A stretch of 64,000 nucleotides of DNA from a phage (GCA_022901335.1 GCA_022901335.1_3641.1), one strand, 5' to 3'. Positions 1,961 through 48,251 are shown, counted from the first letter of the stretch. Program-made: numbers and translations. The notes: a model not told the origin generated them from the sequence alone.

Positions 1961-1961
1961 G

Positions 1962-9638: not shown

Positions 9639-10063
9639 TGAGCACACACCCTCGTTTAGTGGATTGGCAAGAAAGATTGTGGAAAGTGTTTGACGAAGAG
9701 GCCACCATACCTTTTGAATGGGGATTCCACGATTGTTGCACCTTTGCGGCTAAGTGTGTTGATGCCCAATACGGAACAGATTTTCTTTCCAACTTCGAAG
9801 GAACGTATAAAACAGAGTTGGAAAGCAAAAGATGGTGCATGCTTCGTTTCAAAACTACACACCTGCCTACTATTTTTGATCTCTTTATGACTCGGCTGGA
9901 TACTCCTAAACAGGTTCAGCGTGGAGATATTGTCATTTTCGAAGGTCTGAACGGCCTCACCGCTGGTGTGTTCTGGAACAACCAGATTTTGGCGAAAGGT
10001 GATAAAGGGGTCTTTATGTTCGATATGAAAGATTCTATCGTTGTTGATGTCTGGAGGTATTAA
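9638..10063 (+). CDS. tail-associated protein, possible Cys-His (NlpC/P60-like) peptidase
   Basis: ATG 9638 overlaps upstream stop; FEWGFHDCCTF Cys motif; sits where gpK/gpI-like genes precede gpJ. Confidence 0.4.
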   Translation: MSTHPRLVDWQERLWKVFDEEATIPFEWGFHDCCTFAAKCVDAQYGTDFLSNFEGTYKTELESKRWCMLRFKTTHLPTIFDLFMTRLDTPKQVQRGDIVIFEGLNGLTAGVFWNNQILAKGDKGVFMFDMKDSIVVDVWRY

Positions 10064-13000: not shown

Positions 13001-13662
13001 ACAACTACGATGGTAACGGGTACCATCAATACGGTTGGTATATTAACAAGAACGGGCACGCCCAATTTATGGATGTGTGGGTGAAAGGCAACATCAACGC
13101 CAGTTCTGGTAACTTCACAGGGGCAGTTAACGCCACTAGTGGTACCTTCCGTGGGGATGTTTATGCCAATAATGGTAGCTTTAGAGGCACCATAGATGCA
13201 ACCGGAGGTACATTCCGTGGTCGTGTAGAAGCTTCTGTTATCCGTGCTAACCAGTTCGAAGGTGCAATAGTTGCACACAGGACTTACGGGGATTGTGCTC
13301 CAGTATATAACTCCCAGCAAAGGGTTTGCCGTTGGAGGTGGAGATACGTAGATAACGTTTCAGGTCAGGGTAAGAACGTAACATTCTTCTTTAAACTGAA
13401 TGGTACTCTTGCCAGCTCCCAACTGAATGCATGGATAGCTGGTCATCAGATCCTTGCTGGCAAGAAGTATTTTAACGACAACAACGGCATGTGTGCGGTA
13501 GGGATAACAGGTCTTGGTGAACAAACTATAGACATTGTTATCGAGATTTACACACCGTGGTCAACGTCGAGCGTGACAGGTGTCACAATTTCCTGTCCTA
13601 CTGTGATAGTAAGTCGTTCAAACTCTAGCTTCCAGGGACCTTGGAACGAGTCTCACGACTAA
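10063..13662 (+). CDS. central tail fibre / host specificity protein (lambda gpJ-like) with fibronectin-III-like domain
   Basis: 1199 aa; N-terminal gpJ-like region (…CYDPR…), FN3-like segment (YTATVVATSYKGGVSPEA), coiled-coil stretch, C-terminal GTF/GSF repeats. Confidence 0.55.
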   Translation: MPIAMIDNIVASARSSSYDWNASKAALADSLNTVTTRTLDKIFEGNKSYRSQQDRQKLLRSSAAPCSVVYGKTRTSGLLAFLEQDSDRTLHCAIVLANHPLEGIEDILIDGNPISSYGDLVSWELHNDRKTSDPFMGTHCPSWSPDMIGRGISWLRASFKFDPNKFPFGLPNVTLVKVGKKCYDPRISKEVYTNNAALVILDYLRTYLKCPDETINWESFKEAANICDEAVKNADGTSERRYTINGEFDMDEAPASIMAEMLKACGADLSYVAGKYGLLVGAYYGPATMTLSEDCVCGEVKIYPEASFDKRSNTITGRFTSPTKGYSETDFPSVFVPEWVEKDGERKIIDIDYRFVTSPYQAQRVSAIFLRRARAGRIIEVTCNMRGFKFKPGRYVTMDLPSIGIVGQEMRVLEWEFTKKGGVKVKLRQDAKEWNDATGQLPDSGDVDIPISPSGVAQPQNFRYSVLQAGEVTHGVLAWDNVGTYAQNIVQVRKNGEIVWTAQTVEQFVRVEGLTKGSYTATVVATSYKGGVSPEAYCEFNIQAPEAPVSVEVKQGYFAITLIPHSRDLASVSTQYDFWTSGMTRLPDTSDATVTSKATRMGVGSTWTSEGLQNDKIYYWYIRTTNAFGSSAFVECAAHCYTSIEDLMPQIDAEFKKTETYKELTANLDNAVKEMDKNVGAVNDRVTSIFEELGDTIEGVVRETTEKFTGVNGEISALNSKLVAAQQSFDDKLAAESGRLGSLIETTNRSTVDLVNRKTQALSEQITATQGTLREELKNTESKLNSSIQETNKATTDLLNKTTEAIKQDLVAATGKITKLEDDVQKEVANLQASIQETNSTTVDLVNNTATAIRQELTSAKQEIVDEMGNIDELRATVSNTSKAVTTLEGKIDAQWGAKIQVDSAGNKYVAGIQLGMEGSGGQVQSYFMVSANNFAVYNPGNGTATLAFAIKNNQAFLKDAFIENGTISSAKIAQEISSNNYDGNGYHQYGWYINKNGHAQFMDVWVKGNINASSGNFTGAVNATSGTFRGDVYANNGSFRGTIDATGGTFRGRVEASVIRANQFEGAIVAHRTYGDCAPVYNSQQRVCRWRWRYVDNVSGQGKNVTFFFKLNGTLASSQLNAWIAGHQILAGKKYFNDNNGMCAVGITGLGEQTIDIVIEIYTPWSTSSVTGVTISCPTVIVSRSNSSFQGPWNESHD

Positions 13663-26200: not shown

Positions 26201-28855
26201 GATGGAACATCCATATCTATGCAAGTTCCGGTAACAAACGGATACAAGCGTGTTGTGATGATCATTAAGTGCGATCTGATAGGTAAGCAAGTTCTTGCAG
26301 AGAACGGAACTTCCACCCACCTATTTGAGACTGCTCTGCACTATCAGTTTTCTGATTCACCTTTTGCAGGGGATAAGAGAATATCTGACACAGACGCTGT
26401 GCGATGCAAGAAATTTATGCTAGGTGGTGGGTGGTGGTGGTATGAATTTGACTTAACAGACAAATTCACCGACACGTCTAAAGTAGTGACGGGGCTTCGT
26501 CTAGACCTTGGCGAAAACATGCACAAAAGTGTTTGTGATGGCACCTACGGTGACCCAACAATCTACTTAAAGTATGTCTCTTTTGAGCACCCAGAGGATG
26601 TTGTTTATGGTCCAAAACTGAGACTGTTTGGCAATTGGATTGCTAAAGACAGGGTAGGTATGGGCAAGAAGGTAAGAGGCTTCTTAATGGATGCCGGTAC
26701 AGAGGACATGCTAGTCAATGCAGTGTGGCCTGAATTACCTGGGACTCAGTGGAACAACTCAGCCAAATCTATAAACTGGTTCAATATCCACAGGGCTATG
26801 TGGACAACCAACTGTTACCTGTGGAAAGAGCTGAATGACGGCGCTTTCGGGTTCACAGGCGGCAGAAGAATGGCAATCATTTGCTGGACAACGTTGCAAA
26901 GATGTTATGACCATGACTACGAGATTGGAGGTAGGGCATGGAAAAATATTAGGGATAGAATCATAACCAACTTTGCAGATCCTAACGGTGGTGGAGCGTA
27001 TGGCTTCGACTGCAGCAGGCTCATCCATTTGAACGGATCCTCTGCCTACAAGAAAGAAGGTTACTCTGGGTCTATGATAGAATGGGGCCTGGTGAAAGAT
27101 GCTCGCGTGCTGATGGGTCAACAACTTGCTGCTGCAATAGGTCCTAATGCAGTGCAATCTGTTAAACCTGCGTGGTTTGATATCCCATTGTGGTCATCCG
27201 GTACACCAGGAACTGCTGCAATCAACCCTACCACGGGGGATCTGGAAATCTCTTGGGAGGACTTGAAGCAGGTTGGAGGCTGGGATAAAACAGGGTATCA
27301 GGTCCAGTGGTGGAGGGCTGATGGATCTTTAGCCGCTGATGAGTTTGTTAAGGACAATTTCTACACCATGTCCTCTGCAAAAGCACAGCAATTATTTGGT
27401 CAGGCCACTCCGTCAACGATCACCATGTCTATGTGCTGTAAAGACAACAGGACTGGAGCTTTGGGGCCAAGGGTTGCTAAGGTTTTCTCAGGTATTAAAT
27501 GGAATCTCCCTGTTCAAAGTGTTTCATGGAAGCAAATAGGTGATAACAAGCTGCTGGTTACCCCTGCCTGTCAGTTCAACGCAACTCTTAACGTTGATCC
27601 TGCTGTTGCGGCAAACTCAGCTAAAGCTTCTGACTTCTCTGTGTCTAACACTGCTATGGCAGATGTGAGGAAGATTGACACGCTGAACGCCAGAATTACC
27701 TGTAAAAACACTTATGGCACATTCCAGATCATCAACAACTTCACAGATGCTGATTCTAAGGTAGTGAGGACAGCAAGCCAGACTTTGAGTTTAGGAACTC
27801 TGGCCTATGCGGCCCTGATCACTGAACAGTCGGCAACACTCCAAGGAGGTGGTGTAGGCAAGTCCATTACAACACCTGTGTGGAAGCCAAATGAGTGGGT
27901 TGTGTTCGATTTGACTGTGGACTTCTCCAGTGATAATAACTGGACATGGGTAAGGAATTGTTTGTCACAGTTGATGGGCGGTCCAAGCTCCATTAGCGAT
28001 AGTCACGACTCTACTGACCCGAGCGTGTTCCAGGTGGGTAAAACTCACCCAGAGACTGGAGAAACGTTGCCTGACAGGAAGTATGCTTTGGTTTGCATCT
28101 CTTACGGGAAGGCAGATGTCACCTTCTCAGGGACACACACTTATAACGGAACCTACAACTTCTCAAGGAAGTATAGTCTCAAAGCAGGGAACATTGTAGA
28201 CGAGGTTGGTGTGCTGTATAATCCAGGTAACGGCATAGGGATTGTGGGTGGTAAACTGCAGATGCAGGAACCTTCTATTACCCCTTCCAACGTATCCGGT
28301 ATTAGAAAGACTTGGGAAAGTAATAATACCAACATTGCAACAGTGGATGCTGCCACAGGGCTGGTAACATTTAAAGCTACTGGGAATGTCACCATAAAGT
28401 TTGTAGTTACTGATGATGCAGGGCGCAAAACGTCTTCAACATCTTTTACTGTCAAACAGATGGCACCACAGTGGAGAATGTGGATAGGTACAGCAACAAA
28501 CGGGGCATACCCTAATCCGGCAGGTACTTCTGGTATGAAGACTTTCTCTACAAGCAAACCGATGGAGTACGGCAGCGGTCCTAAGGTAGGGCAGATGGTG
28601 TACTTTGGTGCGTATATTCCTGAAATTATAGGGCTTCCGAGAAGTCAGCTTCAGTTGCTGTTTGGGGCTGGTGTTGACGATCTTGCCACTTTCGGGTATA
28701 GCGACAACATCGAGGCTGCAAGGAGTTCAGGATGGGTAGGGTTCAGAATGGAGTCTGGAAAGGAAGGCAGGGTTCTAGGGACAGCCTCTATAGGTGTTAT
28801 GTTCCCTGGTGACCAGCAGTATCGTCTAGAAGCCTACGCAACCTTTTCTCGTTAG
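23219..28855 (+). CDS. giant virion-associated protein with C-terminal Ig-like (Big_2-type) domain
   Basis: 1878-aa ORF with RBS GGAGAA; Big_2-like segment (...IATVDAATGLVTFKATGNVTIKFVVTDDAGRK...). Confidence 0.55.
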   Translation: MLPIPLLKLGRHFLDKRGGIKELAVLSYPIDNSDGTSNTVSYVNSLAILFDDGQLNITGYNRFGECRTGDLDTINYPNEAAWNVDHVWRADRAFVIRTFDNKFFYIGCTAGLIGSEAAGGNDVCVREWTPLPEQIVTGLHLDTHPERLVEVMGGVNNTVWVIAAPEADGMLHLYGSGNNTYGSLHVDKSQHATPVKIGETSESPETGPWKNPRINCEVHDNSVIFGGPNGFWIAGYDFLRNNSKNTLVYPAEHVTLDQFKGIPVGETWKGFMCGPNGAIIATERMHKPDDQQLVNVFYGQDVWGDDTWRSLNITYTHEVIMARGYGTSGIFFNNGTKQYRGFSRNLCNDIGAQSANNNPRANFIHYRALATAKFVEQTEPVSWTESVYFQGIHREGFLGTLCVVNGKLWWSGIPRGSFSGSNNLFGGRLNSQGFTEIPENWYKNVPVDSWGVEDIFDVNGVSSVSNIYIGDTVKMKLKPQPEGATFIIDKIELVNAAGTVVTDANYQFSTNWNHGGANEVVVTQYNRNVNRRGLYSVKITYHDKHGTGRTHTTRTLNWNTIVPAYPSNGKWHTVGRNKQFHVNDTVYFGLNAAQPAVEGDTSYIVRLHRMDAGSVTYDVTQEIYDQRRTTYDNVVKTQALWEFNPNGRGGKMLQVNEQNGTSLTVHEHPDPWPDPGKPNSGARTLKIVSHDAGYFGIRWEATVRYADGTTNNIGITLGGTSEDNSLKIAYTPRGISIDNIDVVRNGYGDVNVKVTLGEHLGGERIIMYAFDHDPRTNGTYANQAWSYLINAPEPNTKEFYYGMKRDVCKKTGTHDWIAICVKDERTAWDEPVNRWFIGIPTRSDKYVAEYIVCMGGTNLNMCWNEDVNKYSDYDYMRDYSCNLWFNQTTGYPPRQARVNPAIFTDTQVFLTKQANEVQTFKNKYDPNKWFYNCYGAFFWGPGELPGGGSCFEAATYASDRFMGQVKKYKIIPGPETLGNAVDPYIIMSDLRSNMDGTSISMQVPVTNGYKRVVMIIKCDLIGKQVLAENGTSTHLFETALHYQFSDSPFAGDKRISDTDAVRCKKFMLGGGWWWYEFDLTDKFTDTSKVVTGLRLDLGENMHKSVCDGTYGDPTIYLKYVSFEHPEDVVYGPKLRLFGNWIAKDRVGMGKKVRGFLMDAGTEDMLVNAVWPELPGTQWNNSAKSINWFNIHRAMWTTNCYLWKELNDGAFGFTGGRRMAIICWTTLQRCYDHDYEIGGRAWKNIRDRIITNFADPNGGGAYGFDCSRLIHLNGSSAYKKEGYSGSMIEWGLVKDARVLMGQQLAAAIGPNAVQSVKPAWFDIPLWSSGTPGTAAINPTTGDLEISWEDLKQVGGWDKTGYQVQWWRADGSLAADEFVKDNFYTMSSAKAQQLFGQATPSTITMSMCCKDNRTGALGPRVAKVFSGIKWNLPVQSVSWKQIGDNKLLVTPACQFNATLNVDPAVAANSAKASDFSVSNTAMADVRKIDTLNARITCKNTYGTFQIINNFTDADSKVVRTASQTLSLGTLAYAALITEQSATLQGGGVGKSITTPVWKPNEWVVFDLTVDFSSDNNWTWVRNCLSQLMGGPSSISDSHDSTDPSVFQVGKTHPETGETLPDRKYALVCISYGKADVTFSGTHTYNGTYNFSRKYSLKAGNIVDEVGVLYNPGNGIGIVGGKLQMQEPSITPSNVSGIRKTWESNNTNIATVDAATGLVTFKATGNVTIKFVVTDDAGRKTSSTSFTVKQMAPQWRMWIGTATNGAYPNPAGTSGMKTFSTSKPMEYGSGPKVGQMVYFGAYIPEIIGLPRSQLQLLFGAGVDDLATFGYSDNIEAARSSGWVGFRMESGKEGRVLGTASIGVMFPGDQQYRLEAYATFSR

Positions 28856-28863
28856 CAAGGGGT

Positions 28864-28898
28864 AAATAAAAAGGGGCCAAACGGCCCCTTTCTTTTTA
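28864..28898. terminator. bidirectional rho-independent terminator between convergent blocks
   Basis: 8-bp stem AAGGGGCC/GGCCCCTT, loop AAAC, A-run on one side and T-run on the other. Confidence 0.65.
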
Positions 28899-28901
28899 TA
28901 A

Positions 28902-29102
28902 TTAGTAATACTCCCAACATGCTCCATCTTCAGACGGCTTGACGCGCTTACCTTTATGGTCAACATAGGTATAGCCACAACCTTCACAAATAACAGGTGC
29001 TGCATAGCCTTCCTTCCACTGATCCTCAGTGATCAGACCTTCCAAATCTTTGCAGTCAAAGCCAAACAACTCTTCAGAGCAATCTTTACAAAAATCAGCC
29101 AT
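28902..29102 (-). CDS. small zinc-ribbon protein
   Basis: 66 aa with CxxC...CxxC Cys pairs. Confidence 0.45.
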   Translation of the reverse strand: MADFCKDCSEELFGFDCKDLEGLITEDQWKEGYAAPVICEGCGYTYVDHKGKRVKPSEDGACWEYY

Positions 29103-29105
29103 TTC

Positions 29106-29588
29106 TCAGTCCTCGCATTTAACAAATTTTTCTACAGATCCACCAAGCACAGCTTGTTGCTTGATGGCACTCTCTTCATCATAGTGGATAGACTTATGTT
29201 CCGTACCTCCAAACTTGCCTGTGTGGAAGGTGTGCACCCAAATCTCTTTAGGAAGGGATTTATTCTCTTCTTCCACCAGCTCCCATATACCCCACAGGTG
29301 GTCTGTAATATCTTTGATGAAATATCCCTCGCCAAGATTTGTATTCACACTATAGGCTGATTCGTGGTCTCCACAAATATAACGGAAGGCGGTGTACTCT
29401 TTCCCAGGTGTGAAGTGGGTATCCATCAGTATAGCTGTTAAAGAATTCGGGTCTCGAAAGCCCAAGAACTTTAGTTTAACAATTTCGACGTTCACACTTG
29501 CAAGATTATCCATGACAATCTCCTCTGCTTGGTTGATGAGATAATCATATATAAATCTGGTGTTGATGTCAAGCTTAATTTTAAGCAA
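29106..29588 (-). CDS. hypothetical protein
   Basis: 160-aa ORF packed in the minus-strand operon. Confidence 0.5.
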   Translation of the reverse strand: MLKIKLDINTRFIYDYLINQAEEIVMDNLASVNVEIVKLKFLGFRDPNSLTAILMDTHFTPGKEYTAFRYICGDHESAYSVNTNLGEGYFIKDITDHLWGIWELVEEENKSLPKEIWVHTFHTGKFGGTEHKSIHYDEESAIKQQAVLGGSVEKFVKCED

Positions 29589-29676
29589 TTTGAGAGGGTA
29601 TTTTATTCAGGAGGGTAATCTCACAGGGTAGGGCAATTTATGAAGGCACAGGCCTCGTTTGAGGCCTTAAAATAGG

Positions 29677-30057
29677 TTATGACACTTTGACGTAGCGCTC
29701 TGACAAAGCTGGGAAGCCAAAAGCAGTACCTATACTACCGTATGCTACCCACCATTGAAGTTCATCGTGACACCATTTTCCGATCAGAAAGGTGCTGGGG
29801 TAGCGAGTCAGTATTTTGGCATAAGCTTTAGGGTCTGCATCCTCTGGGATAATGATACTTGGAACATCTTTGTTATGACCACAGCAGCAGTTTAGAGTTT
29901 TCAATCCTGCCGCCCATAGACTCATGATAGGCTTAGCCATACACTTATCAAGGCACACACGTTTTTTGCCGTCACGGAGCTTTTTAGGCACATCAACGAT
30001 AACATTTTGATGCTTGGCACCTTTCACTTTCCAATTATAGGATTTACACTTGCACAT
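29677..30057 (-). CDS. Cys-rich putative metal-binding protein
   Basis: 126 aa with CKC...CLDKC...CCCGH cluster. Confidence 0.5.
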   Translation of the reverse strand: MCKCKSYNWKVKGAKHQNVIVDVPKKLRDGKKRVCLDKCMAKPIMSLWAAGLKTLNCCCGHNKDVPSIIIPEDADPKAYAKILTRYPSTFLIGKWCHDELQWWVAYGSIGTAFGFPALSERYVKVS

Positions 30058-30087
30058 TTAATCAATCTCCATCTAGAAAGCAATACT

Positions 30088-30258
30088 TTACTTAAAATCT
30101 TTGTCACCTATTACGATTGCACGAATCCACTCATTGCGATGTTCAATGGCGGTAAGGTGTAACATAATGCAGTGATTGTCATTACCAAACACGGTGCGGT
30201 AAGCTTTAGCAGCACCATGATATAACTTCCACATCAGGTAATGATATCTTCGCCTCAT
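30088..30258 (-). CDS. small hypothetical protein (56 aa)
   Basis: below the 60-aa track cutoff; ATG overlaps upstream stop as ATGA; fills an otherwise 200-bp gap. Confidence 0.3.
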   Translation of the reverse strand: MRRRYHYLMWKLYHGAAKAYRTVFGNDNHCIMLHLTAIEHRNEWIRAIVIGDKDFK

Positions 30259-30734
30259 GGCTCTTTCTCCGGTTCAGGATCTGGGTAATCTTCAATAATA
30301 AAAGGCCATCCGTTCCGCTTAGCCTCAGACTTGTACTCAATCTCCTTCATTGCAAACTCTAACTGATTTTTAGCCGGAATACATGCCGGAGAATCATCAA
30401 TCCAGATATCTGGGTAGATATCAAACTGCGCCAGGTAGGCTGCCTTCTGAACACCGCCAGTATAAAACACACCAACATCGAGCTCCTTGCGCCAATACTC
30501 AATGTCTACGTTGTCTTGAGTGATGAATCGGAAAGTCACAAGGTAGACTGTCCACCCTTCCTTTTTCAAGTCCCTAATCAGGCGGGAGAAGATGAAAGGA
30601 CTCGCATTAAATGTTCCATCAAAGTCAATGGCAATGATGTGTGTGCCGTGGCGAGTCTCGTATGGATTGCTTGTGGTAAGATTACTGTAGTTAAAAGGAA
30701 CTTCTTCCCCGCAGTAGCTGTAGTCCATATTCAC
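30255..30734 (-). CDS. HAD-superfamily phosphatase-like protein (possible nucleotidase)
   Basis: motif I IIAIDFDGT (DxDGT) and downstream WIDDSP acidic motif. Confidence 0.5.
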   Translation of the reverse strand: MNMDYSYCGEEVPFNYSNLTTSNPYETRHGTHIIAIDFDGTFNASPFIFSRLIRDLKKEGWTVYLVTFRFITQDNVDIEYWRKELDVGVFYTGGVQKAAYLAQFDIYPDIWIDDSPACIPAKNQLEFAMKEIEYKSEAKRNGWPFIIEDYPDPEPEKEP

Positions 30735-31006
30735 ACCTTCTCGTTGATAAATTTACGGGCTGTTTGGTGAGTTGTTTCTGCTGTCTTCAGAATGATATTA
30801 ATTTTATTGTCAAGATCATTCATCTCTGCAGTTAATTCAGGAATCTCTCCAGTATGCATAGTGAAATCATACATAGACATGCCCAGAATCTCATTGATGC
30901 GACGGTTGCATTCTGCAGCACGCTGGTTCATTTTCCAAGCTAATACCAAAGCCTCCTGCGTAGCCTCTAGTGCAAAGTCTAATACGTCGGCCTCTTCTTT
31001 CGTCAT
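30731..31006 (-). CDS. hypothetical protein
   Basis: 91-aa ORF, overlap-coupled to downstream gene. Confidence 0.45.
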   Translation of the reverse strand: MTKEEADVLDFALEATQEALVLAWKMNQRAAECNRRINEILGMSMYDFTMHTGEIPELTAEMNDLDNKINIILKTAETTHQTARKFINEKV

Positions 31007-31063
31007 CTCAGTCTCTCCTGTTGTATTGTTGGTAGGTGTATGAATACCTTATAACTCACCTTT

Positions 31064-31630
31064 TTATTCAAACTGCAATAGTAAGTCCACCACCGCGCTA
31101 GGTCTGTCAACAAATTCCCCAGGTCCACATGCCCACAGAGGGTATCCGTCTACATACCGCCAAATCCAACCTGCAGTGTGTAGCTCAAGCAGGGCAGTAC
31201 CGTCCTTACTGTCAACCACCCTTTCCCACAGTGTTGGGCAGCGAAGCTTGAGAATCGGATCACCCCCCTTATACCCATCCATGTAGATACCCATTGCAAA
31301 GTTCAGCATCATCTTTTTGTGCACTGATCTCTTATTGAGAGTGCTCATCACTTCCTCTTTGTGAATGTTTGTAAGCTTCTCCCTGGCTACCCGCAGATCG
31401 TTGCAATCATTGTTCAGAAGATCTTCCAGGCACTTGATCCGAAGGTCGTGAATGTCTTTGTCGTGTACCGTTGGCACAGGGTCGTAGCGGTATAGCACTG
31501 TTGATACAAGGTTGCTCGGGTGTGGGTCTGACAGCAACCCATAACCCCAATACTCTTCTGTATCTGAAAGGACAAGACACCCAATGTCTCTGTCAAGCTT
31601 TCCTGTGTTGTAAGCCACATTGACCGCCAT
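31064..31630 (-). CDS. hypothetical protein
   Basis: 188-aa ORF in operon. Confidence 0.5.
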   Translation of the reverse strand: MAVNVAYNTGKLDRDIGCLVLSDTEEYWGYGLLSDPHPSNLVSTVLYRYDPVPTVHDKDIHDLRIKCLEDLLNNDCNDLRVAREKLTNIHKEEVMSTLNKRSVHKKMMLNFAMGIYMDGYKGGDPILKLRCPTLWERVVDSKDGTALLELHTAGWIWRYVDGYPLWACGPGEFVDRPSAVVDLLLQFE

Positions 31631-31632
31631 GA

Positions 31633-31878
31633 CTATAGCTCCACTAGCAAAGTGCTTTCAAAGTGCCGTTCATGCAGACCGTTGTAAGGGACCACTTCCA
31701 CAACGCCATCACGGACATACGGGGCCATCATGGTGGCATAATCCCCAAACGGGTTGGTATTGTCACTAACCACAACCACCTTCTGCCCTTCCTTGGCAGA
31801 GTGCCAAATAGACCTGCACTTCATCAGGTGTTCGAGAGCTCCAGGTAAAATTTTGTTACGTTCTTTACGGGTCTTCAT
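31633..31878 (-). CDS. hypothetical protein
   Basis: 81-aa ORF. Confidence 0.45.
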   Translation of the reverse strand: MKTRKERNKILPGALEHLMKCRSIWHSAKEGQKVVVVSDNTNPFGDYATMMAPYVRDGVVEVVPYNGLHERHFESTLLVEL

Positions 31879-32324
31879 AACAGGTATAGCTCCTTATGAA
31901 AGTGGTCTTTTAATTTCTCACTGAGAAACCTTTTGATACCTTCCTCTAAAGTGTTTTCGATATAGTCCAGCTTAACTGCTTCGATGGACATATCATAGAT
32001 CGCCAGCTCTAAGCTGTCAAGTCCCATCATAGCATGAACCATAAGATTTTCATCTTCAGATACATTCAGGGGACTTCCTATAACATCTGTAGGGAGGATA
32101 GTTTCCCAATTATTCTGGGGGGTAGTTCTCCCGCCATCCACTTTACGGCGCAGTTCGAAGGTGTTCTTAGTGTAGAACACTTCATAAGAAACGATACGAC
32201 TATCGCTCTCATAATAAACGAAGTTCAGGTAGGAGCCTAGCCGCAGTCGGCAAACTTCTACCCCAAACCATTGTTTCTTATAAGAATTCAGGCTAATGCT
32301 ATCGCATTCACGTTTGCTCAACAC
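31875..32324 (-). CDS. hypothetical protein
   Basis: 149-aa ORF, overlap-coupled. Confidence 0.5.
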   Translation of the reverse strand: MLSKRECDSISLNSYKKQWFGVEVCRLRLGSYLNFVYYESDSRIVSYEVFYTKNTFELRRKVDGGRTTPQNNWETILPTDVIGSPLNVSEDENLMVHAMMGLDSLELAIYDMSIEAVKLDYIENTLEEGIKRFLSEKLKDHFHKELYLL

Positions 32325-32339
32325 GGCTCTCTCCTTTTG

Positions 32340-32573
32340 TTAATCTTCGTAAATCAGGATTTCTGCTTTAGGTTTTCGTGCTTTCAGGTCCAGCTCTATC
32401 CAGTGCACCATAGCTGTTTCAAGAAAAACAGCTTGGATGCATCCGTCCTCAGCGTGCCCCACCAACATAACAAGATCTTCACCTTCGTCATCTGCATCAC
32501 GAACATACAGAATCTCTCCAGATTCAAAGTCTTTCACAACCTGATTGCTGGATAATTTACGAATTTTTGCCAT
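32340..32573 (-). CDS. small protein, divergent member of tandem paralog family
   Basis: 77 aa; weak similarity to the three 87-aa paralogs upstream. Confidence 0.4.
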   Translation of the reverse strand: MAKIRKLSSNQVVKDFESGEILYVRDADDEGEDLVMLVGHAEDGCIQAVFLETAMVHWIELDLKARKPKAEILIYED

Positions 32574-32574
32574 A

Positions 32575-32838
32575 TCAGAAACCCTCTAAAAAGCTCTTGT
32601 AGAAAATAATTTCAGTGTCCACACCTGTCACGATCTTATCGTTTCGGATCTCATCGGTAAGATAGGTGTCAAAACGCAGAACCTGTGTGGTGTTGTCACA
32701 CATCCACTCAGCTGTGACCATTGCGAAAATCTTAGCATCTTCATTATCTGGTGTGAATGTTACCACCTCACCGCACTTAAACTTTTCGATAGGCTGAGTG
32801 TTAGCTTTCGGTTCTGCGATAGTGATTTTTGTGGTCAT
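32575..32838 (-). CDS. small protein, tandem paralog family member 3
   Basis: 87 aa; shares CGxVV...VTGVDTEIIF core with neighbours. Confidence 0.5.
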   Translation of the reverse strand: MTTKITIAEPKANTQPIEKFKCGEVVTFTPDNEDAKIFAMVTAEWMCDNTTQVLRFDTYLTDEIRNDKIVTGVDTEIIFYKSFLEGF

Positions 32839-33101
32839 TATTCTCCTCCTTCTTTCGAATAGCTTGTCTCTCCAAGGATGGTAATTTTGGTATCAAGCTC
32901 TGTAACTTTCATGTTTGGCGGCAGATCGTACAACTCATTATTTTCTAAATCGAATCCCCACACACAATGTTCTCCTGTTTTGACAATCATAACTATGTTT
33001 TGAATGCCGTCTCCGTCGCAACTTACCACGGTCCCACACGGAAAACTGTCTGCACGCTTTTTGTTCTTCACCTTAGAATTGAATACAATGCTAGTAGCCA
33101 T
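32838..33101 (-). CDS. small protein, tandem paralog family member 2
   Basis: 87 aa; MATS..F.SK.K.KK..S..CGTVV...VWGFDL...VTELDTKITILGE; ATGA overlap with neighbours. Confidence 0.5.
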   Translation of the reverse strand: MATSIVFNSKVKNKKRADSFPCGTVVSCDGDGIQNIVMIVKTGEHCVWGFDLENNELYDLPPNMKVTELDTKITILGETSYSKEGGE

Positions 33102-33364
33102 TATTGTTCCTCCACCATAACTTCGCCAAGAATTTCTATGCAGGCATCCATTTCTGTAACAACCAAACTGTGAGGTAGTTCTACAAACACCTTTCTGAAC
33201 AGGTCAAATACCCCAACATATATGTTTGCAGGATGTGATTTTACAACAAGTGCTGTATTCACATCCCCAAGTTCATCAACAAACATCACCACAGTGCCTA
33301 GAGCTACTGAGGACAGATACTTCTTAGTTTTACGGTTTGATGCAAATTTTAACTCTGTTGCCAT
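33101..33364 (-). CDS. small protein, tandem paralog family member 1
   Basis: 87 aa; MATELKFASNRKTKK...GTVV...VGVFDL...VTEMDACIEILGE. Confidence 0.5.
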   Translation of the reverse strand: MATELKFASNRKTKKYLSSVALGTVVMFVDELGDVNTALVVKSHPANIYVGVFDLFRKVFVELPHSLVVTEMDACIEILGEVMVEEQ

Positions 33365-33379
33365 AAATAGCCTCCTCTC

Positions 33380-34861
33380 TTACTTAGCGTACTCGATTAA
33401 TTCCACAGTTTTCCCAAAGCTCGGGATATAATTTTTATTATACCCTTCAGTGAGAACCCATAAAGTATCGTACTTTTTCCACTTGTTGTCAACAGCCTTT
33501 TGTTCAAAGTTATGCTCAAAGTATAGGTCGGTCAGGACGATGACATCTTTTGCATTCGGTATGTTGGCATCCAGATACTCGAACACGCAAGCAGCTGTTG
33601 TGCCCCATGTTGAGTGGACCTCATAGTTGATCATTTCGTCTATGTTGCCGCGAGTATATACTTTAACCTCTCCGACTTCAGTTGACCAACAGAACATTGT
33701 AACCTTAAACTCTTTATACAGATTGCACAATCCGGTGATTTCATTGAACATTTTCTTTAAAGTTCTTTGAGAGATCGAGCCAGAAACGTCTAAAGCTACC
33801 ACAATATCTATGGTGTTTTCCGGATTACGACCAGGAACAATAACGTGCTGGTTCTTGTTTATAGCCCCAACTTTTCGCATTGTGCTGGTCAAAGACCCAG
33901 ATCGGCGACCAGGTTTTCTGTAGGTCAGTTCGGCCTTTCTTTTAGACAACATGCGTTGCTTGATGATGTCTATATAATTGATTACAGGCTTACCTCTATT
34001 CTTGACAAACTCACGAACCGCCTCAGGGCAACGGCCTCCGGAAGCTTGCATTGCTGCCTCCAGCATGTCACCAGAGTCCTGCATGGCCTGATCTTTATCA
34101 GATTGGCTTATTACAGGTTGTGGCTGATCATACCCCATAGCTTTTCCAAGATCATCACTGGTGCCACCGTTACCACTCATGTGATCATCGGTTTGTCGCT
34201 TATCACCTTGAGAGTTCTCACCTTTACCGCTCTTACTTTTACCGTTATTCTGATCTCTTTGCTTATCAAGAACTGCATAGACGTTCTCAGCAATCCATCC
34301 ATGAAACTTCATGTCGCAGTAGCAGTTAGCTAAGAAGCCAAAAGGCTTGCCTTTCACGAACGTAGTGCTTTTCCCCTTCGGGAAGAAAACACAAGGAGGC
34401 TTGCTAAAGTCAACCACAAGACCTGTGTTGATAACGTGATCACAAGCAATATTAAACAGTTCCGGCTCAAAGCTCTTACCACGGACCAGGTGATCACAGA
34501 TAATATGCCCCACCTCATGTGACAGAAGAAAGGCCACCTCTTTCACAGATTTGGGGGAATAGAAAACCTCAGCCATCTCAAACTGCTTGTCAGTTAGAGA
34601 AGCCTTAAGAATAGCCTTGCGTTCATCAGCCAATCCCATAATGAACTCAGGACTGTAATAGATGCGTTTATGGTCGGTTGCCATGGTGGAGCACCATGTG
34701 TGGTTTTCTACGAACTGCAACCCTGACAGTAGTGTGCCATAGAACGGCAGCTTTTCAAGGAGATACATACGTGCAGCCTGCAACATTCTCAGGGCATCAT
34801 CTTTCTGCGAGGCAATGATTTCTGAACTTCTGCTATCCATTAAAACTCCAGAAGGGGCCAT
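33380..34861 (-). CDS. VWA-domain protein with N-terminal HExxH metallopeptidase-like domain
   Basis: HEVGH motif in N-terminal half; MIDAS-type DVSGSIS in C-terminal half. Confidence 0.6.
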   Translation of the reverse strand: MAPSGVLMDSRSSEIIASQKDDALRMLQAARMYLLEKLPFYGTLLSGLQFVENHTWCSTMATDHKRIYYSPEFIMGLADERKAILKASLTDKQFEMAEVFYSPKSVKEVAFLLSHEVGHIICDHLVRGKSFEPELFNIACDHVINTGLVVDFSKPPCVFFPKGKSTTFVKGKPFGFLANCYCDMKFHGWIAENVYAVLDKQRDQNNGKSKSGKGENSQGDKRQTDDHMSGNGGTSDDLGKAMGYDQPQPVISQSDKDQAMQDSGDMLEAAMQASGGRCPEAVREFVKNRGKPVINYIDIIKQRMLSKRKAELTYRKPGRRSGSLTSTMRKVGAINKNQHVIVPGRNPENTIDIVVALDVSGSISQRTLKKMFNEITGLCNLYKEFKVTMFCWSTEVGEVKVYTRGNIDEMINYEVHSTWGTTAACVFEYLDANIPNAKDVIVLTDLYFEHNFEQKAVDNKWKKYDTLWVLTEGYNKNYIPSFGKTVELIEYAK

Positions 34862-34873
34862 TGGCCCCTGTTA

Positions 34874-35914
34874 TTATTTAACGTGTTTGAAAATACCTGC
34901 CAACTCGGTCATTGTCATGCGGGTGGTCTTCATAAGATCTGTCATAGCTTTCTCCATAATTGGAGATACTACCATAAAGTTTCCTTTAGTGAAACCTTTA
35001 TTCCAGTCGGTCACCAACAGAGGTTTAAGTCCAGCTCCAAGACGTTCACCAGTTAAAGCACAGCATTTGCGAATATACGAACTCTTAAATTGGCTGAACG
35101 ACAGATCAACTTTCATACCTACATCGTAGAACGTTTGACAATAGAAAGTGTAAGCTTTGGCAATCTCAACATCATCAGGTAGTGCAGGAACCTCTTCTGT
35201 AAGCTCCTCTTCGACCTCCTGAGTCTCTTTTTCCTCTTCATGCACCTGTTGCGTCATTTCTTCAATCTCTTCTGTGATAGGCTCGTTTACAATGTCGGAA
35301 ATGTGCTTCTTGGGTGCACGATAAGTAACTTTAGACATCGGTAGCATATCTTCCTCCTCTTCTTCGTCAAAGAGTGCTAGTTTATCCTCTTCCGTTCCAT
35401 ATTGCAAGATGAAATCTTCAAAAGTATAATCACCTTTCAATTTCTCCATACGCTCTTCGCTCAGGTGGAGCATCATCTGCTGGACAATTTTTCGATCAGT
35501 TTCGTCTTTAATCAAGACTGCAGTCTTTTTATCTACCAGACAGTCCTTTAGAGAGTTGCATCTCAATCCCACCACACAACAGTTATCAACCGCATAAGGA
35601 CCTTCATCATCTATCCGCTCCAGAGATGGGTAGAAAGGATTTCCCAGCCCGTTTTCATCTGTGTGCATGTCAAAAGGTATAAGGGTATAGTCGCATACTC
35701 CATCTCCTAAAAGTTTTTTACCAAATAGGAGGTATTCTTCCCATGACAGGTCGAACTCTATATCTCGTTTCCGTGCGTTATTCTGTTTGCGTCTATATTT
35801 TTTGAGCAAGCGCTCTAACTCTTCCGGTGTATAATATTTTTCAAGATTCATGAGTCGTCTCTCGTGCTCTGTAAGTGAAGAAATCGTATCAATTGTCTCA
35901 ACAGATGTCAACAT
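34874..35914 (-). CDS. protein with two HNH-like (S-x-E/D-R-I-D type) domains separated by an acidic linker
   Basis: ATG at 35914 (track start 35917 is TTG); DIEFDLSWEEY...SLERIDDEGPYAVDNCCVV and a second similar unit; poly-E linker. Confidence 0.45.
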   Translation of the reverse strand: MLTSVETIDTISSLTEHERRLMNLEKYYTPEELERLLKKYRRKQNNARKRDIEFDLSWEEYLLFGKKLLGDGVCDYTLIPFDMHTDENGLGNPFYPSLERIDDEGPYAVDNCCVVGLRCNSLKDCLVDKKTAVLIKDETDRKIVQQMMLHLSEERMEKLKGDYTFEDFILQYGTEEDKLALFDEEEEEDMLPMSKVTYRAPKKHISDIVNEPITEEIEEMTQQVHEEEKETQEVEEELTEEVPALPDDVEIAKAYTFYCQTFYDVGMKVDLSFSQFKSSYIRKCCALTGERLGAGLKPLLVTDWNKGFTKGNFMVVSPIMEKAMTDLMKTTRMTMTELAGIFKHVK

Positions 35915-35924
35915 CAAAAACGTG

Positions 35925-35953
35925 TTGACTTTACTCTAACTCCACAATATAGT
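35925..35953 (+). promoter_or_regulatory. sigma70-like promoter TTGACT-N17-TATAGT in divergent intergenic region
   Basis: near-consensus hexamers 40 bp upstream of the 35994 ATG, 10 bp from the minus-strand gene start. Confidence 0.55.
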
Positions 35954-35993
35954 GCACCCATTCGAAAGAAAACTAACATAGGAGCACTTACTT

Positions 35994-36899
35994 ATGGCAA
36001 ATCTTAACAGTTTTAGTACGCGGTGGAAACAGGACATAACAACCAATCTTTCAGCTGGAGACATCCTTTCTGCAATTTACGAGGCTTTAGATGATAAAGC
36101 TACTTCAAAAGCGGTTTGTACCAACCCACTAATTCCTGTAGTGATGAAGGTTATTGAGCGTAGATTGGTATCTGGGTCTGATAAGTGGACATATTTAGAT
36201 AATGAAGGACACACCTATTCCAATGGGTACGTCGATATAAAAGTAGAATACGCGGTATCATACCGCCGGAGCGGTTCTGTAACTTTCAACTTCTCTGGAG
36301 GTTTTCGATCTCTGGCTACCTCACCTTTTGTTTCCTCAGAGGAGAAGTATGAGCTGCCATTTCTTTGGATGATGGCTAACGCGACAGGAAAAACCCCCGT
36401 TAGCATCCGAGTAAAATACAACTACAACGGATCTAGTAAGATCTATGCCGAAAGTGTCTCAGCAAGTTTTTATTTTGTGATGGGGGATGGAATCCTCAAA
36501 CATATAAAGATGTGCGATATGCATGATGTTATAAATGAAGTGACTGATAAGAATGTTCTAGTGAAAGACCTCAACAATTTTTATACACCCGGAGACTATT
36601 ACGTCAGCCGTCCACTGTGCATCTTTAATGCCGCACACCCTCTAGGTGAGTATTTGATCGCCAATAGCGATATTGCCAATAACCGCTTCGAGGTAGCAAG
36701 AGTTCAGAATGAGGTATTGACATCTTGCAAGAGCGGTGATAAGTTTACCGAAGAAGAGATGGGTGTTTTAGAAATGATGGGATATAAGTGTAGCCTTTGG
36801 GTAGATGAGGTGTTTAATGATTGCATCTATGGACAGGATATTTACCCATTAAAGAAGTATACTGATTCCAGTTTAATTTACGCGGAGATTTTACTATGA
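35994..36899 (+). CDS. hypothetical early protein
   Basis: 301-aa ORF with RBS AGGAG. Confidence 0.55.
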   Translation: MANLNSFSTRWKQDITTNLSAGDILSAIYEALDDKATSKAVCTNPLIPVVMKVIERRLVSGSDKWTYLDNEGHTYSNGYVDIKVEYAVSYRRSGSVTFNFSGGFRSLATSPFVSSEEKYELPFLWMMANATGKTPVSIRVKYNYNGSSKIYAESVSASFYFVMGDGILKHIKMCDMHDVINEVTDKNVLVKDLNNFYTPGDYYVSRPLCIFNAAHPLGEYLIANSDIANNRFEVARVQNEVLTSCKSGDKFTEEEMGVLEMMGYKCSLWVDEVFNDCIYGQDIYPLKKYTDSSLIYAEILL

Positions 36900-37168
36900 T
36901 GAAGGCATGTGGTAGTGTATACTATGTGGGTGAAAATGTTCAGGCAGACAATGTGTGGAAATCCATTAAGTCCACCACCGATGATGCCTTCTTGAGCGGG
37001 TTATGTTTCCCCAATCCAGGGGACATCCTTCCTCACCCTGGAGATTTTGTTGTTAACAAGATGGACGGTTATACCGTGTGCCTGATGGTTGAAAAAATCT
37101 TTTTAGACACTAGACACAATCACCGTCTTGTGTTAAAATTTCAAGAATGTAAAATGACAATTGCCTAA
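36896..37168 (+). CDS. hypothetical protein
   Basis: 90-aa ORF, overlap-coupled. Confidence 0.45.
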   Translation: MMKACGSVYYVGENVQADNVWKSIKSTTDDAFLSGLCFPNPGDILPHPGDFVVNKMDGYTVCLMVEKIFLDTRHNHRLVLKFQECKMTIA

Positions 37169-38222: not shown

Positions 38223-38492
38223 ATGTTATACCAGCAATATGAACTTCGTGCAGAAAAAGAGTTAAATTTTGACAAAGATATTCACAGATATTATTATGGG
38301 AAAGTTAGAGGGCAAGCAAGAAAGTGTACTCCAACACTCTTTTATGCCAGCAGACGACTAGCGCCAGAAGAGGCAACAGCAGAAAGGGTTGCGTACAACT
38401 GGAGAGTCACGTATGATATTGACAGATTCGATGTGATATCTGTTTTGGAAAACTTTGAAAACACTTACACACAAGTAGAGGACTTTTACTAA
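38223..38492 (+). CDS. hypothetical protein, coupled to AAA+ gene
   Basis: RBS AAGGAG; stop overlaps next start (TAATG). Confidence 0.45.
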   Translation: MLYQQYELRAEKELNFDKDIHRYYYGKVRGQARKCTPTLFYASRRLAPEEATAERVAYNWRVTYDIDRFDVISVLENFENTYTQVEDFY

Positions 38493-39676
38493 TGTCAAGA
38501 AACGTATTCGAAAGTGGTCAAATCACTGTCCGTGAGTTGCCAGCTATTATTCAGTTTGCCCAACGTCATAGCCGATCTGTCCTAATTTTGGGACCAATGG
38601 GTGTGGGTAAAAGCCAGGTGATGAAGCAGATCGCTGATAATATGTTCGGTGAGCGAGATGACAACCTTGTTGACGTGCGACTGTCAGATAAAGATCCTGC
38701 CGACTTATCTGGGCTACCTATCCCTGTAGAAGCGGATGGAACTACACGTACAGTGTTTGCAATTCCAGAATTTTGGCCTGCGGATCCTGACTGGAGCGGA
38801 ATTATCTTTCTGGATGAGCTCACTCATGCAGATAACTACCTGCAAAAGGTTGCAATGCAAATTATGCTTGACCACAAGTGCGGCACCTATGCATTCCCTA
38901 AGGGTTCTGTTTTTGTGGCTGCGGGTAACCGTTCTACAGATGGTGCGGTTCTTTCGGCGCTCGAAGCCCCTCTGGCTAACCGTTTTATCATTGTAGAGGT
39001 TACAAGCAATGCAGAGGTGTTTATTGAGGACTACGCATTCCTTAATGGGGTGCACTCCTCTGTAATTGGATATCTGAAAAGAGTTCCATCAGCTATCGAT
39101 AATTATGAGGCCATGGCTGAGATTAATTGTCCATCTTTTGCCACACCGCGATCTTGGGTTGCTGCATCTGATATCTTGCACGATTTTGACAGCGGTATTA
39201 TTTCTGACGCTATGGCCCGTGTTCTTCTGCAAGGTGCTATTGGTCACACTGCAGCGGTAGAGATCTGGACATACCACACCAAGAAACGCAATTTACCGGA
39301 AATCGGTCGGATTATGGCAGGTGGCTGCAAAGAATACGTAGGCCCTAAGCAGCCAGACATTTTGTGGATTCTTGGATCTGAAGGTTGTATCGCTATTCGT
39401 AATATGATGGAAAATGCAAGTATCTCAGACGAAGATCTTGTCAGCTGCGTGGCAAACTTCCTCGATTTCCTTTGGGAAAACTTCAAGGACGAGAACCGAG
39501 ATTTTGTATTCTCAGTCTTTATGGCGATGATGAAACCTAATGCCTTAGGAAATGCCTTGCTTATCGGTAAAGGTCGTGACAAGATTGTTGCTCAGCTGAT
39601 CAAAGCATACCCAAACCTGATGAAGATTGTAAAAGAGTTTGGTGAAGAGTTTAGCGCCATTTTGGCTAAAGCTTAA
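38492..39676 (+). CDS. MoxR-like AAA+ ATPase (AAA_5-type)
   Basis: Walker A GPMGVGKS, Walker B IIFLDEL, sensor motif LANRF. Confidence 0.65.
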   Translation: MSRNVFESGQITVRELPAIIQFAQRHSRSVLILGPMGVGKSQVMKQIADNMFGERDDNLVDVRLSDKDPADLSGLPIPVEADGTTRTVFAIPEFWPADPDWSGIIFLDELTHADNYLQKVAMQIMLDHKCGTYAFPKGSVFVAAGNRSTDGAVLSALEAPLANRFIIVEVTSNAEVFIEDYAFLNGVHSSVIGYLKRVPSAIDNYEAMAEINCPSFATPRSWVAASDILHDFDSGIISDAMARVLLQGAIGHTAAVEIWTYHTKKRNLPEIGRIMAGGCKEYVGPKQPDILWILGSEGCIAIRNMMENASISDEDLVSCVANFLDFLWENFKDENRDFVFSVFMAMMKPNALGNALLIGKGRDKIVAQLIKAYPNLMKIVKEFGEEFSAILAKA

Positions 39677-46822: not shown

Positions 46823-47587
46823 TTGAAATTTATCTACAAAGAACACTACCACAAAGGTGTTGTGTGGAGTCTGTTTGACGGGTCTGGTGGTGCAGTCATT
46901 GACTGGGCAAAAGCTGGGTACCTGTGCCTGTGCTTTAATGCAGAAGGTGCTGATCACGGCAGTTATGCAGAGGTGATAACCGATCATCCCAACATTCACT
47001 ATGTGGATTATTGGATTGACCCATGGTTCCCTCAGGAAACTTTTTGCATGTACCCAGCTCCAGACTTTATTCTTGCATTTCCTCCGTGCACGCATTTAGC
47101 GGTATCAGGTGCTGCACATTTTAAGAAAAAGCTGGCTAAGGATCCTTTGATCCAAATTAATGCTGTAAAGGATGCTCGGGTTGCGGAAGAACTGGGAGAG
47201 ATTTACGATTGCCCGTGGCATGTAGAGAATCCTGTTGGTGTTATGTCCACACTGTGGCGCAAACCTGATTACCGTTTTCATCCTTCTGACTATGGCGGGT
47301 ATTTACCGGAGGATGATGTAAACCCCTGGTTTCCTGAATTTATAGCTCCACGTGATGCCTATCCAAAAATAACTTGCGGCTGGATAGGTAATGGATTTAT
47401 AATCCCGGCCACAAAACCTGTCCCGCAAATAGTTGACGCGGTTAGCGGGTATTCCATGCAACACGCCAAGCTGGGCGGAAAGAGTGCAAGAACGAAGATG
47501 ATCCGAAGCCTCACACCACGTGGCTGGGCAAAAGCCGTATTCTTAGCAAACGAGCCTGCAGTAAGGAGAAGGGCAAATGGTTGTTGA
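46823..47587 (+). CDS. short C5-cytosine-methyltransferase-like protein
   Basis: TTG start after RBS AGGAGA; motif I-like LFDGSGG, PC motif FPPC, ENV-like ENPVG; lacks a recognisable target-recognition domain. Confidence 0.4.
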   Translation: MKFIYKEHYHKGVVWSLFDGSGGAVIDWAKAGYLCLCFNAEGADHGSYAEVITDHPNIHYVDYWIDPWFPQETFCMYPAPDFILAFPPCTHLAVSGAAHFKKKLAKDPLIQINAVKDARVAEELGEIYDCPWHVENPVGVMSTLWRKPDYRFHPSDYGGYLPEDDVNPWFPEFIAPRDAYPKITCGWIGNGFIIPATKPVPQIVDAVSGYSMQHAKLGGKSARTKMIRSLTPRGWAKAVFLANEPAVRRRANGC

Positions 47588-48251
47588 CTGGAGCAAGTAT
47601 TTCACCTATAGCGACGGCAAACTGTTCTGGGCGTATACCGCAAAAGCCGGAAGGGGTAGGATCATACATTACGCAGGTGAGGAGGCCACAGGCACAGATA
47701 AAGATGGCTATAGAGTAATAAATGTGTCAGGTGTTGGAAGTGTTCGTAGGCACAGAATAATTTGGGAGATGCATTACGGAGAGATACCTGAAGGTCTTGT
47801 TGTTCGGCACAAGAACGACATAGCAGGGGACGACAGGATAGAGAACCTAATCCTGGGGACACAAGGTGATAATGCACGAGACATGATCTACAGTGACAAG
47901 CTAAACATTAACAATACCTCAGGGTATCGTGGCGTGCGCTATCATAGAGGTATAAAAAGATGGACTGCATCTGCTGGAGACATATACTTAGGGTGTTTTA
48001 AGACAAAAGAGGATGCAATTGCATGCAGAAAGTTATGGGAGAAAGGAAAATTCGTCCCGCAAGAATTAGATGTTAGAAACACTAGCGGTGTAACAGGGGT
48101 GTTCTATGTGCCGAGCTCTGGAAGGTGGAGAGTCCGAGTGCAAAGCGGCAAAAAGAGAAAGAGCTATGGCACTTACAACACTTTAGAAGAAGCAAAAGCT
48201 GTAAGGGATAAGGTGATGAAAGAGATTGAGGAGTTTAAAGATGGGGAATAA
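47577..48251 (+). CDS. HNH homing endonuclease with two AP2 DNA-binding domains
   Basis: HNH_3 motif HRIIWEMHYGEIPEGLVVRHKNDIAGDDRIENLILGTQGDN; AP2-like SGYRGVRYH...W and SGVTGVFY...GRWRVRV...YGTYNTLEEA. Confidence 0.7.
   Translation: MVVDWSKYFTYSDGKLFWAYTAKAGRGRIIHYAGEEATGTDKDGYRVINVSGVGSVRRHRIIWEMHYGEIPEGLVVRHKNDIAGDDRIENLILGTQGDNARDMIYSDKLNINNTSGYRGVRYHRGIKRWTASAGDIYLGCFKTKEDAIACRKLWEKGKFVPQELDVRNTSGVTGVFYVPSSGRWRVRVQSGKKRKSYGTYNTLEEAKAVRDKVMKEIEEFKDGE

Follow-up and report, generated by a model that had tools for sequence, protein, structure and literature searches.

The closest described counterpart of the locus presented here belongs to phage rV5, for which four transcription units have been proposed, one of them made up of genes 11-26; the same paper names its gp11 a homologue of Srd (Kropinski et al. 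2013, PMC3606486; Virol J 10:76). In phage T4, Srd promotes the degradation of host mRNA by stimulating RNase E (Qi et al. 2015, as cited in PMC7430671). Moreover, MoxR ATPases paired with peptidase-vWA proteins are described in jumbo phages, where a role in virion assembly or processing was proposed for them (Iyer et al. 2021, PMC7824862). Here, we analysed a window of 64,000 nucleotides of phage DNA (GCA_022901335.1_3641.1; all coordinates refer to this whole stretch) and, more precisely, a block of 15 minus-strand genes (28902-35851) lying between a bidirectional terminator and two back-to-back sigma70-type promoters. We conclude that this block is most likely native to Vequintavirus, as a leftward transcription unit that corresponds to rV5 genes 11-26 and is probably expressed early. 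It is an ordinary feature, already described as the "genes 11-26" unit of rV5-like phages.

When used as a query, the locus (7.2 kb) matched 122 phage records, all from Vequintavirus (rV5-like myoviruses). The match extended over at least 80% of the query length in 113 of them, with 90-98% DNA identity, and the closest relative was Escherichia phage LL12 (98.3%). The window is thus from a Vequintavirus, of the "murica"-like lineage. In well-annotated relatives, the left flank of the block is the lateral and short tail-fibre module, and the right flank contains small open reading frames (ORFs), a MoxR-annotated ATPase, rIIA/rIIB, helicase, primase, and DNA polymerase genes.

The long ORFs between 28902 and 35917 are all located on the minus strand, the remainder of the window being essentially on the plus strand, and the GC skew passes from around +0.10 outside to around -0.13 exactly over the block. 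These ORF calls and this skew flip agree with an earlier description made from the sequence alone (hereafter, the original prediction), which had seen a minus-strand block amid a plus-strand window, with a bidirectional terminator at its left border and a divergent promoter region at its right border. Both borders were confirmed, the left one by fold energy, U-tracts on both strands, and stem conservation, and the right one by two conserved promoters. These border signals are:

28863..28898, both strands: bidirectional intrinsic terminator (predicted), common to the late tail-fibre operon (plus) and the block (minus); GGGGCC/GGCCCC stem with flanking A-run and T-run
35883..35913, minus strand: leftward sigma70-type promoter predicted to drive the block; TGTTGACA-17-TG-TACGAT; annotated in phage Gotham
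35923..35953, plus strand: rightward sigma70-type promoter, back to back with the leftward one; TGTTGACT-17-TATAGT; annotated in phage Gotham

The arms of the terminator (28863-28878 and 28883-28898) form a hairpin of -18.7 (plus strand) or -19.6 kcal/mol (minus strand), a stability reached by 0 of 200 shuffles. On each strand, a U-tract directly follows the hairpin on its 3' side (UUUCUUUUU on the plus strand, UUUUUAUUU on the minus strand), and the whole element is enclosed by the convergent stop codons 28855 and 28902. A comparison with six relatives showed no change in the stem or in the A/T tracts, but variation in the loop and in the left (upstream) flank. This preservation of the stem next to a variable loop gives indirect support to the prediction that transcripts of both converging units end at 28863-28898.

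At the other border, the promoter hexamers are TTGACT-17-TATAGT on the plus strand (35925-35953) and TTGACA-17-(TG)TACGAT on the minus strand (35911-35883), with 10 of 12 consensus matches each, and both promoters are conserved in relatives. The extended TGTTGAC motif, which both promoters carry, occurs nine times in the window for 0.99 expected. The interval originally proposed for the divergent promoter region (35918-35993) contains the rightward promoter but leaves the leftward one outside. Indeed, the ATG at 35851, and not the TTG at 35917, is the start of the first gene of the block (325 aa, in agreement with the annotation of relatives), so that the leftward promoter lies upstream of this gene and not inside it. 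After this correction, both promoters fall within an intergenic region of 142 bp (35852-35993). The "genes 11-26" unit of rV5 has the same terminator and the same promoter pair.

The genes, numbered from the promoter towards the terminator, are listed below, together with the ATPase gene on the other arm of the promoter.

34874..35851, minus strand: g01, 325 aa, Srd-like, first gene of the unit (PHROGs 4592 and 1400; alignment with T4 Srd)
33380..34840, minus strand: g02, 486 aa, HExxH metallopeptidase (DUF2201_N) and VWA-like (DUF2201) domains (Pfam 3e-28 and 4e-11)
33101..33364, minus strand: g03, 87 aa, additional paralog, variably present in the genus (PHROG 10698)
32838..33101, minus strand: g04, 87 aa, true paralog of g03 (PHROG 10698)
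32575..32838, minus strand: g05, 87 aa, small acidic protein
32340..32573, minus strand: g06, 77 aa, small acidic protein
31875..32324, minus strand: g07, 149 aa (weak homologue adjoining the VWA-peptidase gene in PVP-SE1)
31633..31878, minus strand: g08, 81 aa (PHROG 4868)
31064..31630, minus strand: g09, 188 aa, genus-only
30731..31006, minus strand: g10, 91 aa, genus-only
30255..30734, minus strand: g11, 159 aa, cap-less HAD-fold phosphatase-like
30088..30258, minus strand: g12, 56 aa, genus-only
29677..30057, minus strand: g13, 126 aa, Cys/His-rich (8 Cys), genus-only
29106..29513, minus strand: g14, 135 aa, replaceable module
28902..29102, minus strand: g15, 66 aa, two CxxC pairs (zinc-ribbon-like), last gene (PHROG 2210)
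38492..39676, plus strand: AAA+ ATPase, annotated MoxR in relatives, outside the block on the other promoter arm

The start of g02 is most likely at 34840 (486 aa), where a GGAG Shine-Dalgarno sequence precedes it, and that of g14 is at 29513. Genes g01 to g13 are tightly packed, with overlapping stops and starts. The last two genes, g14-g15, have their own promoter (29544-29572) and a terminator; the remaining 13 genes are without individual units.

The original prediction regarded the block as accessory and named, as the observation that would make it core, its conservation in order and content in all relatives. Within the genus, the answer goes against an accessory nature, since 113 of the 122 relatives have the same genes in the same order, and the orientation is the same in all 122 records. 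Even the most divergent genomes examined contain all 15 genes, with 82-100% amino-acid identity, which is no different from the flanks. The ratio of nonsynonymous to synonymous substitution rates (dN/dS) is low, from 0 to 0.33 for the 13 block genes for which it was measurable. The proposed comparison of GC skew and codon usage with the flanks revealed no foreign composition, and the block matches the adjacent replication-side genes. Its GC content is 0.435 (0.444 and 0.448 in the flanks) and its coding-strand skew +0.135 (+0.10 and +0.12 in the flanks). The relative synonymous codon usage of the block correlates with that of the right arm at r=0.90, versus 0.66 with that of the late genes.

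Across genera, the block is not conserved. In PVP-SE1, LNA4, and KNP2, the only homologues are those of g01, g02, g11, and, weakly, g07, in the same order as in the block. In these phages, the arm that carries g01/g02 (Srd-like/DUF2201) is also divergent from the ATPase arm but is much longer than the block. This layout, with Srd-like and VWA-peptidase genes facing away from the ATPase gene, is common to Seunavirus and Mydovirus. In Certrevirus and W70, g02 is the only block gene found, and it lies beside the ATPase gene on the same strand. When the 13 small proteins were concatenated for a tblastn search, the matches beyond the genus were limited to g11, g15, and the C-terminal end of g14, the homologues of g15 (60-72% identity) belonging to Felix O1-like (Felixounavirus) and T5-like phages. 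At the sensitivity of tblastn, 10 of the 15 genes were found solely in Vequintavirus, and three to four recur in other genera. From this pattern of homologues, we infer that the block joins an old promoter-proximal core, common across genera, to a genus-specific distal part that turns over.

Some turnover is also seen inside the genus. Of 118 Vequintavirus records, 44 carry g03, which rV5, FV3, FFH2, PMBT16, and Bas54 lack. Instead of g14, A51.2 and Bas54 have two other small genes, which come with their own, different promoter. Two signals frame this exchange:

29544..29572, minus strand: internal sigma70-type promoter P3, TTGACA-17-TATGAT, 11/12 matches; in the 163-bp gap preceding g14; annotated in Gotham and conserved in relatives
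29650..29667, minus strand: conserved hairpin directly after g13, -13.1 kcal/mol, 0/200 shuffles as good

The swap starts directly after this hairpin, which is kept even in A51.2, where the sequence downstream differs; it is the border of the swappable g14 module.

Published genetic data exist for a phage of the same genus. In the HIDEN-SEQ preprint (10.1101/2025.11.20.689424), Vequintavirus Bas54 was subjected to transposon sequencing. Its genes bas54_0042-0056 are the equivalents of the block, without g03 and with an alternative g14 module. On E. coli K-12, all of them, among which the 13 block orthologues (bas54_0042 and 0045-0056), were called non-essential, with the exception of bas54_0043 (reduced fitness), which has no counterpart in this window. 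Dispensability is not peculiar to the block, since Bas54 has 146 non-essential genes out of 227, and bas54_0057-0068 in the right flank are among them. On the clinical host CFE311, the ATPase gene was lost (log2 fold change -7.2) and the metallopeptidase gene, orthologue of g02, was depleted (log2 fold change -2.2, adjusted p 0.009); the g07 orthologue had a log2 fold change of -2.3, which was not significant. The authors stated that the ATPase is required against a predicted defence system, DS-28, and did not mention the peptidase. We read the joint depletion of the peptidase and ATPase genes from the supplementary table of the preprint, and this link is absent from its text. In supplementary file 9, Data S6 and S7 hold the same table, the sheet labelled K-12 vs CFE303 repeating both the table and the command line of the K-12 vs CFE311 sheet, so that this file contains no CFE303 results.

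The block could also be explained as a moron-type accessory cassette, i.e., variable cargo acquired horizontally between the tail-fibre and replication modules, and part of the accessory, host-interaction profile that the original prediction gave it does stand. The block is dispensable in the laboratory, all tested Bas54 orthologues being non-essential, and it is partly genus-specific, with ten genes not found beyond Vequintavirus. In addition, g03 is polymorphic, some phages have exchanged g14 for other genes, g15 has counterparts in the unrelated Felix O1-like and T5-like phages, and g14-g15 possess their own promoter and terminator. However, the block as a whole is not inserted, foreign, or variable. 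In 113 of 122 genomes, it retains its genes and their order, at 90-98% DNA identity; its genes do not differ from the flanking ones in identity or dN/dS; in GC content and codon usage, it cannot be told apart from the replication-side neighbour region; and g01, g02, and g11 occupy the same relative positions in other genera. Moreover, the phage is virulent, so that the criterion of expression from a prophage, which applies to morons, is inapplicable. We therefore consider an accessory origin of the whole block unlikely, its description suiting only the distal g14-g15 piece. The term "inverted", which was also applied to the block, finds even less support: the opposite orientation and the flip in GC-skew sign would be expected of a recently inverted segment or of a site-specific inversion switch, but a repeat search at the block borders found no flanking inverted or direct repeats, no recombinase gene flanks the block, and the same orientation is found in all 122 records and in other genera. 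The coding-strand skew also equals that of the flanks, as expected of long-resident genes, and the probability that we leave to an inversion is very close to nil.

A third explanation is that the block, or the ATPase/VWA-peptidase pair together with g07, serves virion or tail-fibre assembly, as a middle or late morphogenesis helper. Such a role was proposed for MoxR-vWA pairs not only of jumbo phages but also of the archaeal virus ATV (Iyer et al. 2021, PMC7824862), the block adjoins the tail-fibre operon, and PHROG 6790, which matches g07, is labelled "tail protein". On the contrary, Bas54 can form plaques on K-12 without the peptidase, the ATPase, or g07, the ATPase is needed specifically to counter a defence system, and the codon usage of the block resembles that of replication-side genes and not that of late genes. 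In addition, no gp11-26 appears in the available part of the virion-proteome section of the rV5 paper (PMC3606486). An assembly role is therefore quite improbable in our opinion, more so than an accessory origin and less so than an inversion, and the Bas54 genetics fits counter-defence better than virion assembly for the ATPase/peptidase pair.

The native leftward unit thus remains our preferred reading, and its second gene deserves closer attention. The VWA-HExxH protein of the original prediction was recovered in g02, with both Pfam domains above cut-off (DUF2201_N at 99.5 bits for a cut-off of 23.2, DUF2201 at 43.7 bits for 26.4) and an HExxH motif that reads HEVGH; homologues are present in 676 phage records. 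In every relative examined, the g02 homologue co-occurs with an AAA+ ATPase. The ATPase of the window is 37% identical (E=1e-57) to an ATPase of an Aeromonas phage that bears the Pfam AAA_5 domain and adjoins a DUF2201 gene. In Certrevirus, W70, and Aeromonas phage 2L372D, the ATPase gene lies directly beside the DUF2201 gene in the same orientation; here, they are 3.6 kb apart on opposite arms of the divergent promoter, and they likewise occupy opposite arms in Seunavirus and Mydovirus. We also observed that 2L372D, a phage outside Vequintavirinae, carries an AAA+ ATPase gene, a gene for a DUF2201 peptidase-VWA protein, and one for an Srd-like protein, all on the same strand and within 9 kb (1702-4387 and 10001-10846), an arrangement that hints at a functional association of all three.

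The partner of g02 is most likely the MoxR-like ATPase across the promoter. We tentatively propose, as a possibility to which we give somewhat less than even chances, that the two-way promoter splits and co-regulates a counter-defence machine made of the ATPase (right), g02 (left), and possibly g07, which would neutralise DS-28 of E. coli CFE311. If so, the promoter-proximal part of the block would be a conditionally essential anti-defence locus and not an assembly chaperone. The AAA+ ATPase/VWA-metallopeptidase pair, found in hundreds of phage genomes including those of N4-like and jumbo phages, may be a counter-defence device. This pairing across a divergent promoter is the only lead with some novelty to come out of the locus.

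We propose the following course for the unit. The host sigma70 RNA polymerase would initiate at the two back-to-back promoters (35883-35953). The rightward transcript would extend over the ATPase, rIIA/B, and replication genes, and the leftward one from g01 to g13. The leftward unit would be subdivided by a conserved hairpin after g01 and by the second promoter before g14-g15, and transcription would end at the terminator that also closes the converging tail-fibre operon. The cargo would be host-takeover and counter-defence genes, dispensable in laboratory E. coli: an Srd-like protein, the VWA-metallopeptidase (acting with the ATPase), a small HAD phosphatase, and around ten genus-only small proteins. 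The early timing is suggested by promoter type, codon usage, and gene content; the same promoter motif also clusters in the part of the Certrevirus genome that is presumed to be early (PMC7344957).

Several points weigh against this picture. A literature search for a transcriptome or transcription-start map of any Vequintavirinae phage found none. Sigma70-like promoters are found throughout the rV5 genome (PMC3606486), and promoter type alone is therefore no proof of early expression. The ATPase of the window has itself only a sub-threshold AAA match in Pfam, and its assignment to MoxR comes from annotation and from the AAA_5 match of its homologue. The peptidase phenotype in Bas54 is modest and was not discussed by the authors. 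Finally, as Bas54 is without g03 and has a different g14, the K-12 dispensability calls do not cover these two genes.

The locus matters mainly for correct annotation, i.e., for the layout of probably early genes in rV5-like therapeutic and biocontrol phages. It also represents a 7-kb region that is probably deletable or replaceable when engineering such phages.

Two further signals were found in the promoter-proximal and central parts of the block:

34853..34869, minus strand: conserved GC hairpin between g01 and g02, -17.6 kcal/mol; stem invariant, loop variable
31992..32020, minus strand: candidate internal promoter P2, embedded in g07, TTGACA-17-TATGAT, 11/12 matches

The repeat search showed that the stem of the g01/g02 hairpin is the same GGGGCC/GGCCCC as that of the bidirectional terminator 6 kb away, and this hairpin may be an attenuator, a processing site, or an RNA-stability element. 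Within g07, around 100 nt of coding sequence (31960-32060, minus strand) are nearly invariant among seven phages despite a synonymous divergence (dS) of around 0.4 for this gene. The stretch holds two promoter-like sites (TTGACA-17-TATGAT and ATGAAA-16-TATGAT), and its invariance suggests an embedded regulatory element. No RNA family was detected when 28000-37000 was scanned with Rfam.

Concerning the first gene, the original prediction of an HNH-like protein was not sustained, and g01 is better read as Srd-like. Its N-terminal domain aligns with residues 4-133 of T4 Srd (BLASTP E=3e-7; hhalign probability 78%, E=1.8e-5), and its C-terminal module aligns with the same segment (E=1e-3), giving two Srd-N-like modules joined by an acidic linker. 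The C-terminal half of T4 Srd has no counterpart in g01. On the basis of these alignments, we assign g01 to the Srd family as a homologue of the N-terminal domain only. As a candidate HNH endonuclease, g01 finds no support: it has no Pfam match at E<=10 and does not resemble the genuine HNH_3 protein encoded elsewhere in the window. Its only HNH links are PHROG families labelled "endonuclease VII" or "HNH", and this label is unreliable, since the PHROG of the VWA-peptidase bears it too. An AlphaFold2 model of g01, built from a seven-sequence alignment, had a pLDDT of 46, too poor for fold comparison. Searches of Pfam, NCBIfam, and PDB sequences with the small ORFs and g01 yielded nothing usable.

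The HAD-like phosphatase, on the other hand, was confirmed in g11. Motifs I-IV (DxDxT; S/T; K; DD) are present, with D37, D39, K97, and D113 invariant in 104 homologues and T41, T67, and D114 conserved in at least 90% of them, and the protein has the Rossmann-like HAD fold. In the proposed array of four small paralogs, only g03 and g04 are clear paralogs, with significant similarity (37-39% identity, E=1e-12). The other two, g05 and g06, are similar to them in size and charge, with 17-21% identity in alignment, and g06 has no BLAST-level similarity to g03-g05. When a joint profile of g03-g06 was compared with 1.84 billion representative proteins, the matches were confined to this family of these phages. 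A match to a 7945-aa repeat adhesin was discarded as spurious, its score being the sum of 53 repeats of around 4 bits each. The block is Cys-rich as announced (2.4% Cys versus 1.35% and 1.94% in the flanks), but the enrichment is modest and driven by g13 and g15. Similarly, of the zinc ribbons, only g15 has two CxxC pairs, g13 being Cys/His-rich without classical knuckles.

Elsewhere in the window, we made several observations. Relative to phages Aya and B9-1, the most divergent large gene is that of the lateral tail-fibre protein, which has a fibronectin type III domain (10063-13662, plus strand); its identity is 83-84%, with length differences, versus at least 94% for its neighbours. The DNA polymerase ORF (50378-54124, plus strand) encodes 1248 aa versus around 925 aa in relatives. 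It contains a 324-aa in-frame insertion (residues 672-995), which starts with CYSGDTQIL, ends with VAVCGN followed by C, and is absent in phage CarlMeissner; by its sequence, this insertion looks like an intein. A gene for a 224-aa homing endonuclease with HNH_3 and AP2 domains (47577-48251, plus strand) lies between a Dcm-like methyltransferase gene and the primase/helicase gene and is missing from the three relatives compared.

Among known systems, the block is nearest to rV5 "genes 11-26" (Kropinski et al. 2013), which is the same gene block in the same genus; they differ in that rV5 is without g03, the extra paralog of this phage. The early host-takeover cluster dexA-dda-srd-modA-modB, which is non-essential in T4, likewise has an Srd-type protein among small dispensable genes under sigma70 promoters. 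However, g01 is a 325-aa protein with two Srd-N-like modules and an acidic linker, the other block genes are unrelated to that cluster, and the likeness comes from sequence comparison. With the MoxR/vWA pairs of jumbo phages (Iyer et al. 2021), N4-like phages, and other phages, the block shares in g02 the same metallopeptidase and VWA architecture. These pairs are adjacent on one strand elsewhere, whereas here, as in Seunavirus and Mydovirus, they are located on opposite arms of a divergent promoter. Finally, g14-g15 are similar to the morons of lambdoid prophages (Juhala, Hendrix and colleagues) in having their own promoter and terminator, in gene replacement, and in being shared with unrelated phages. 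They differ from them in that this phage is virulent and has no expression from a repressed prophage, and the remaining 13 genes of the block keep their synteny throughout the genus. Thus, g14-g15 is the only part of the block that fits the moron definition.

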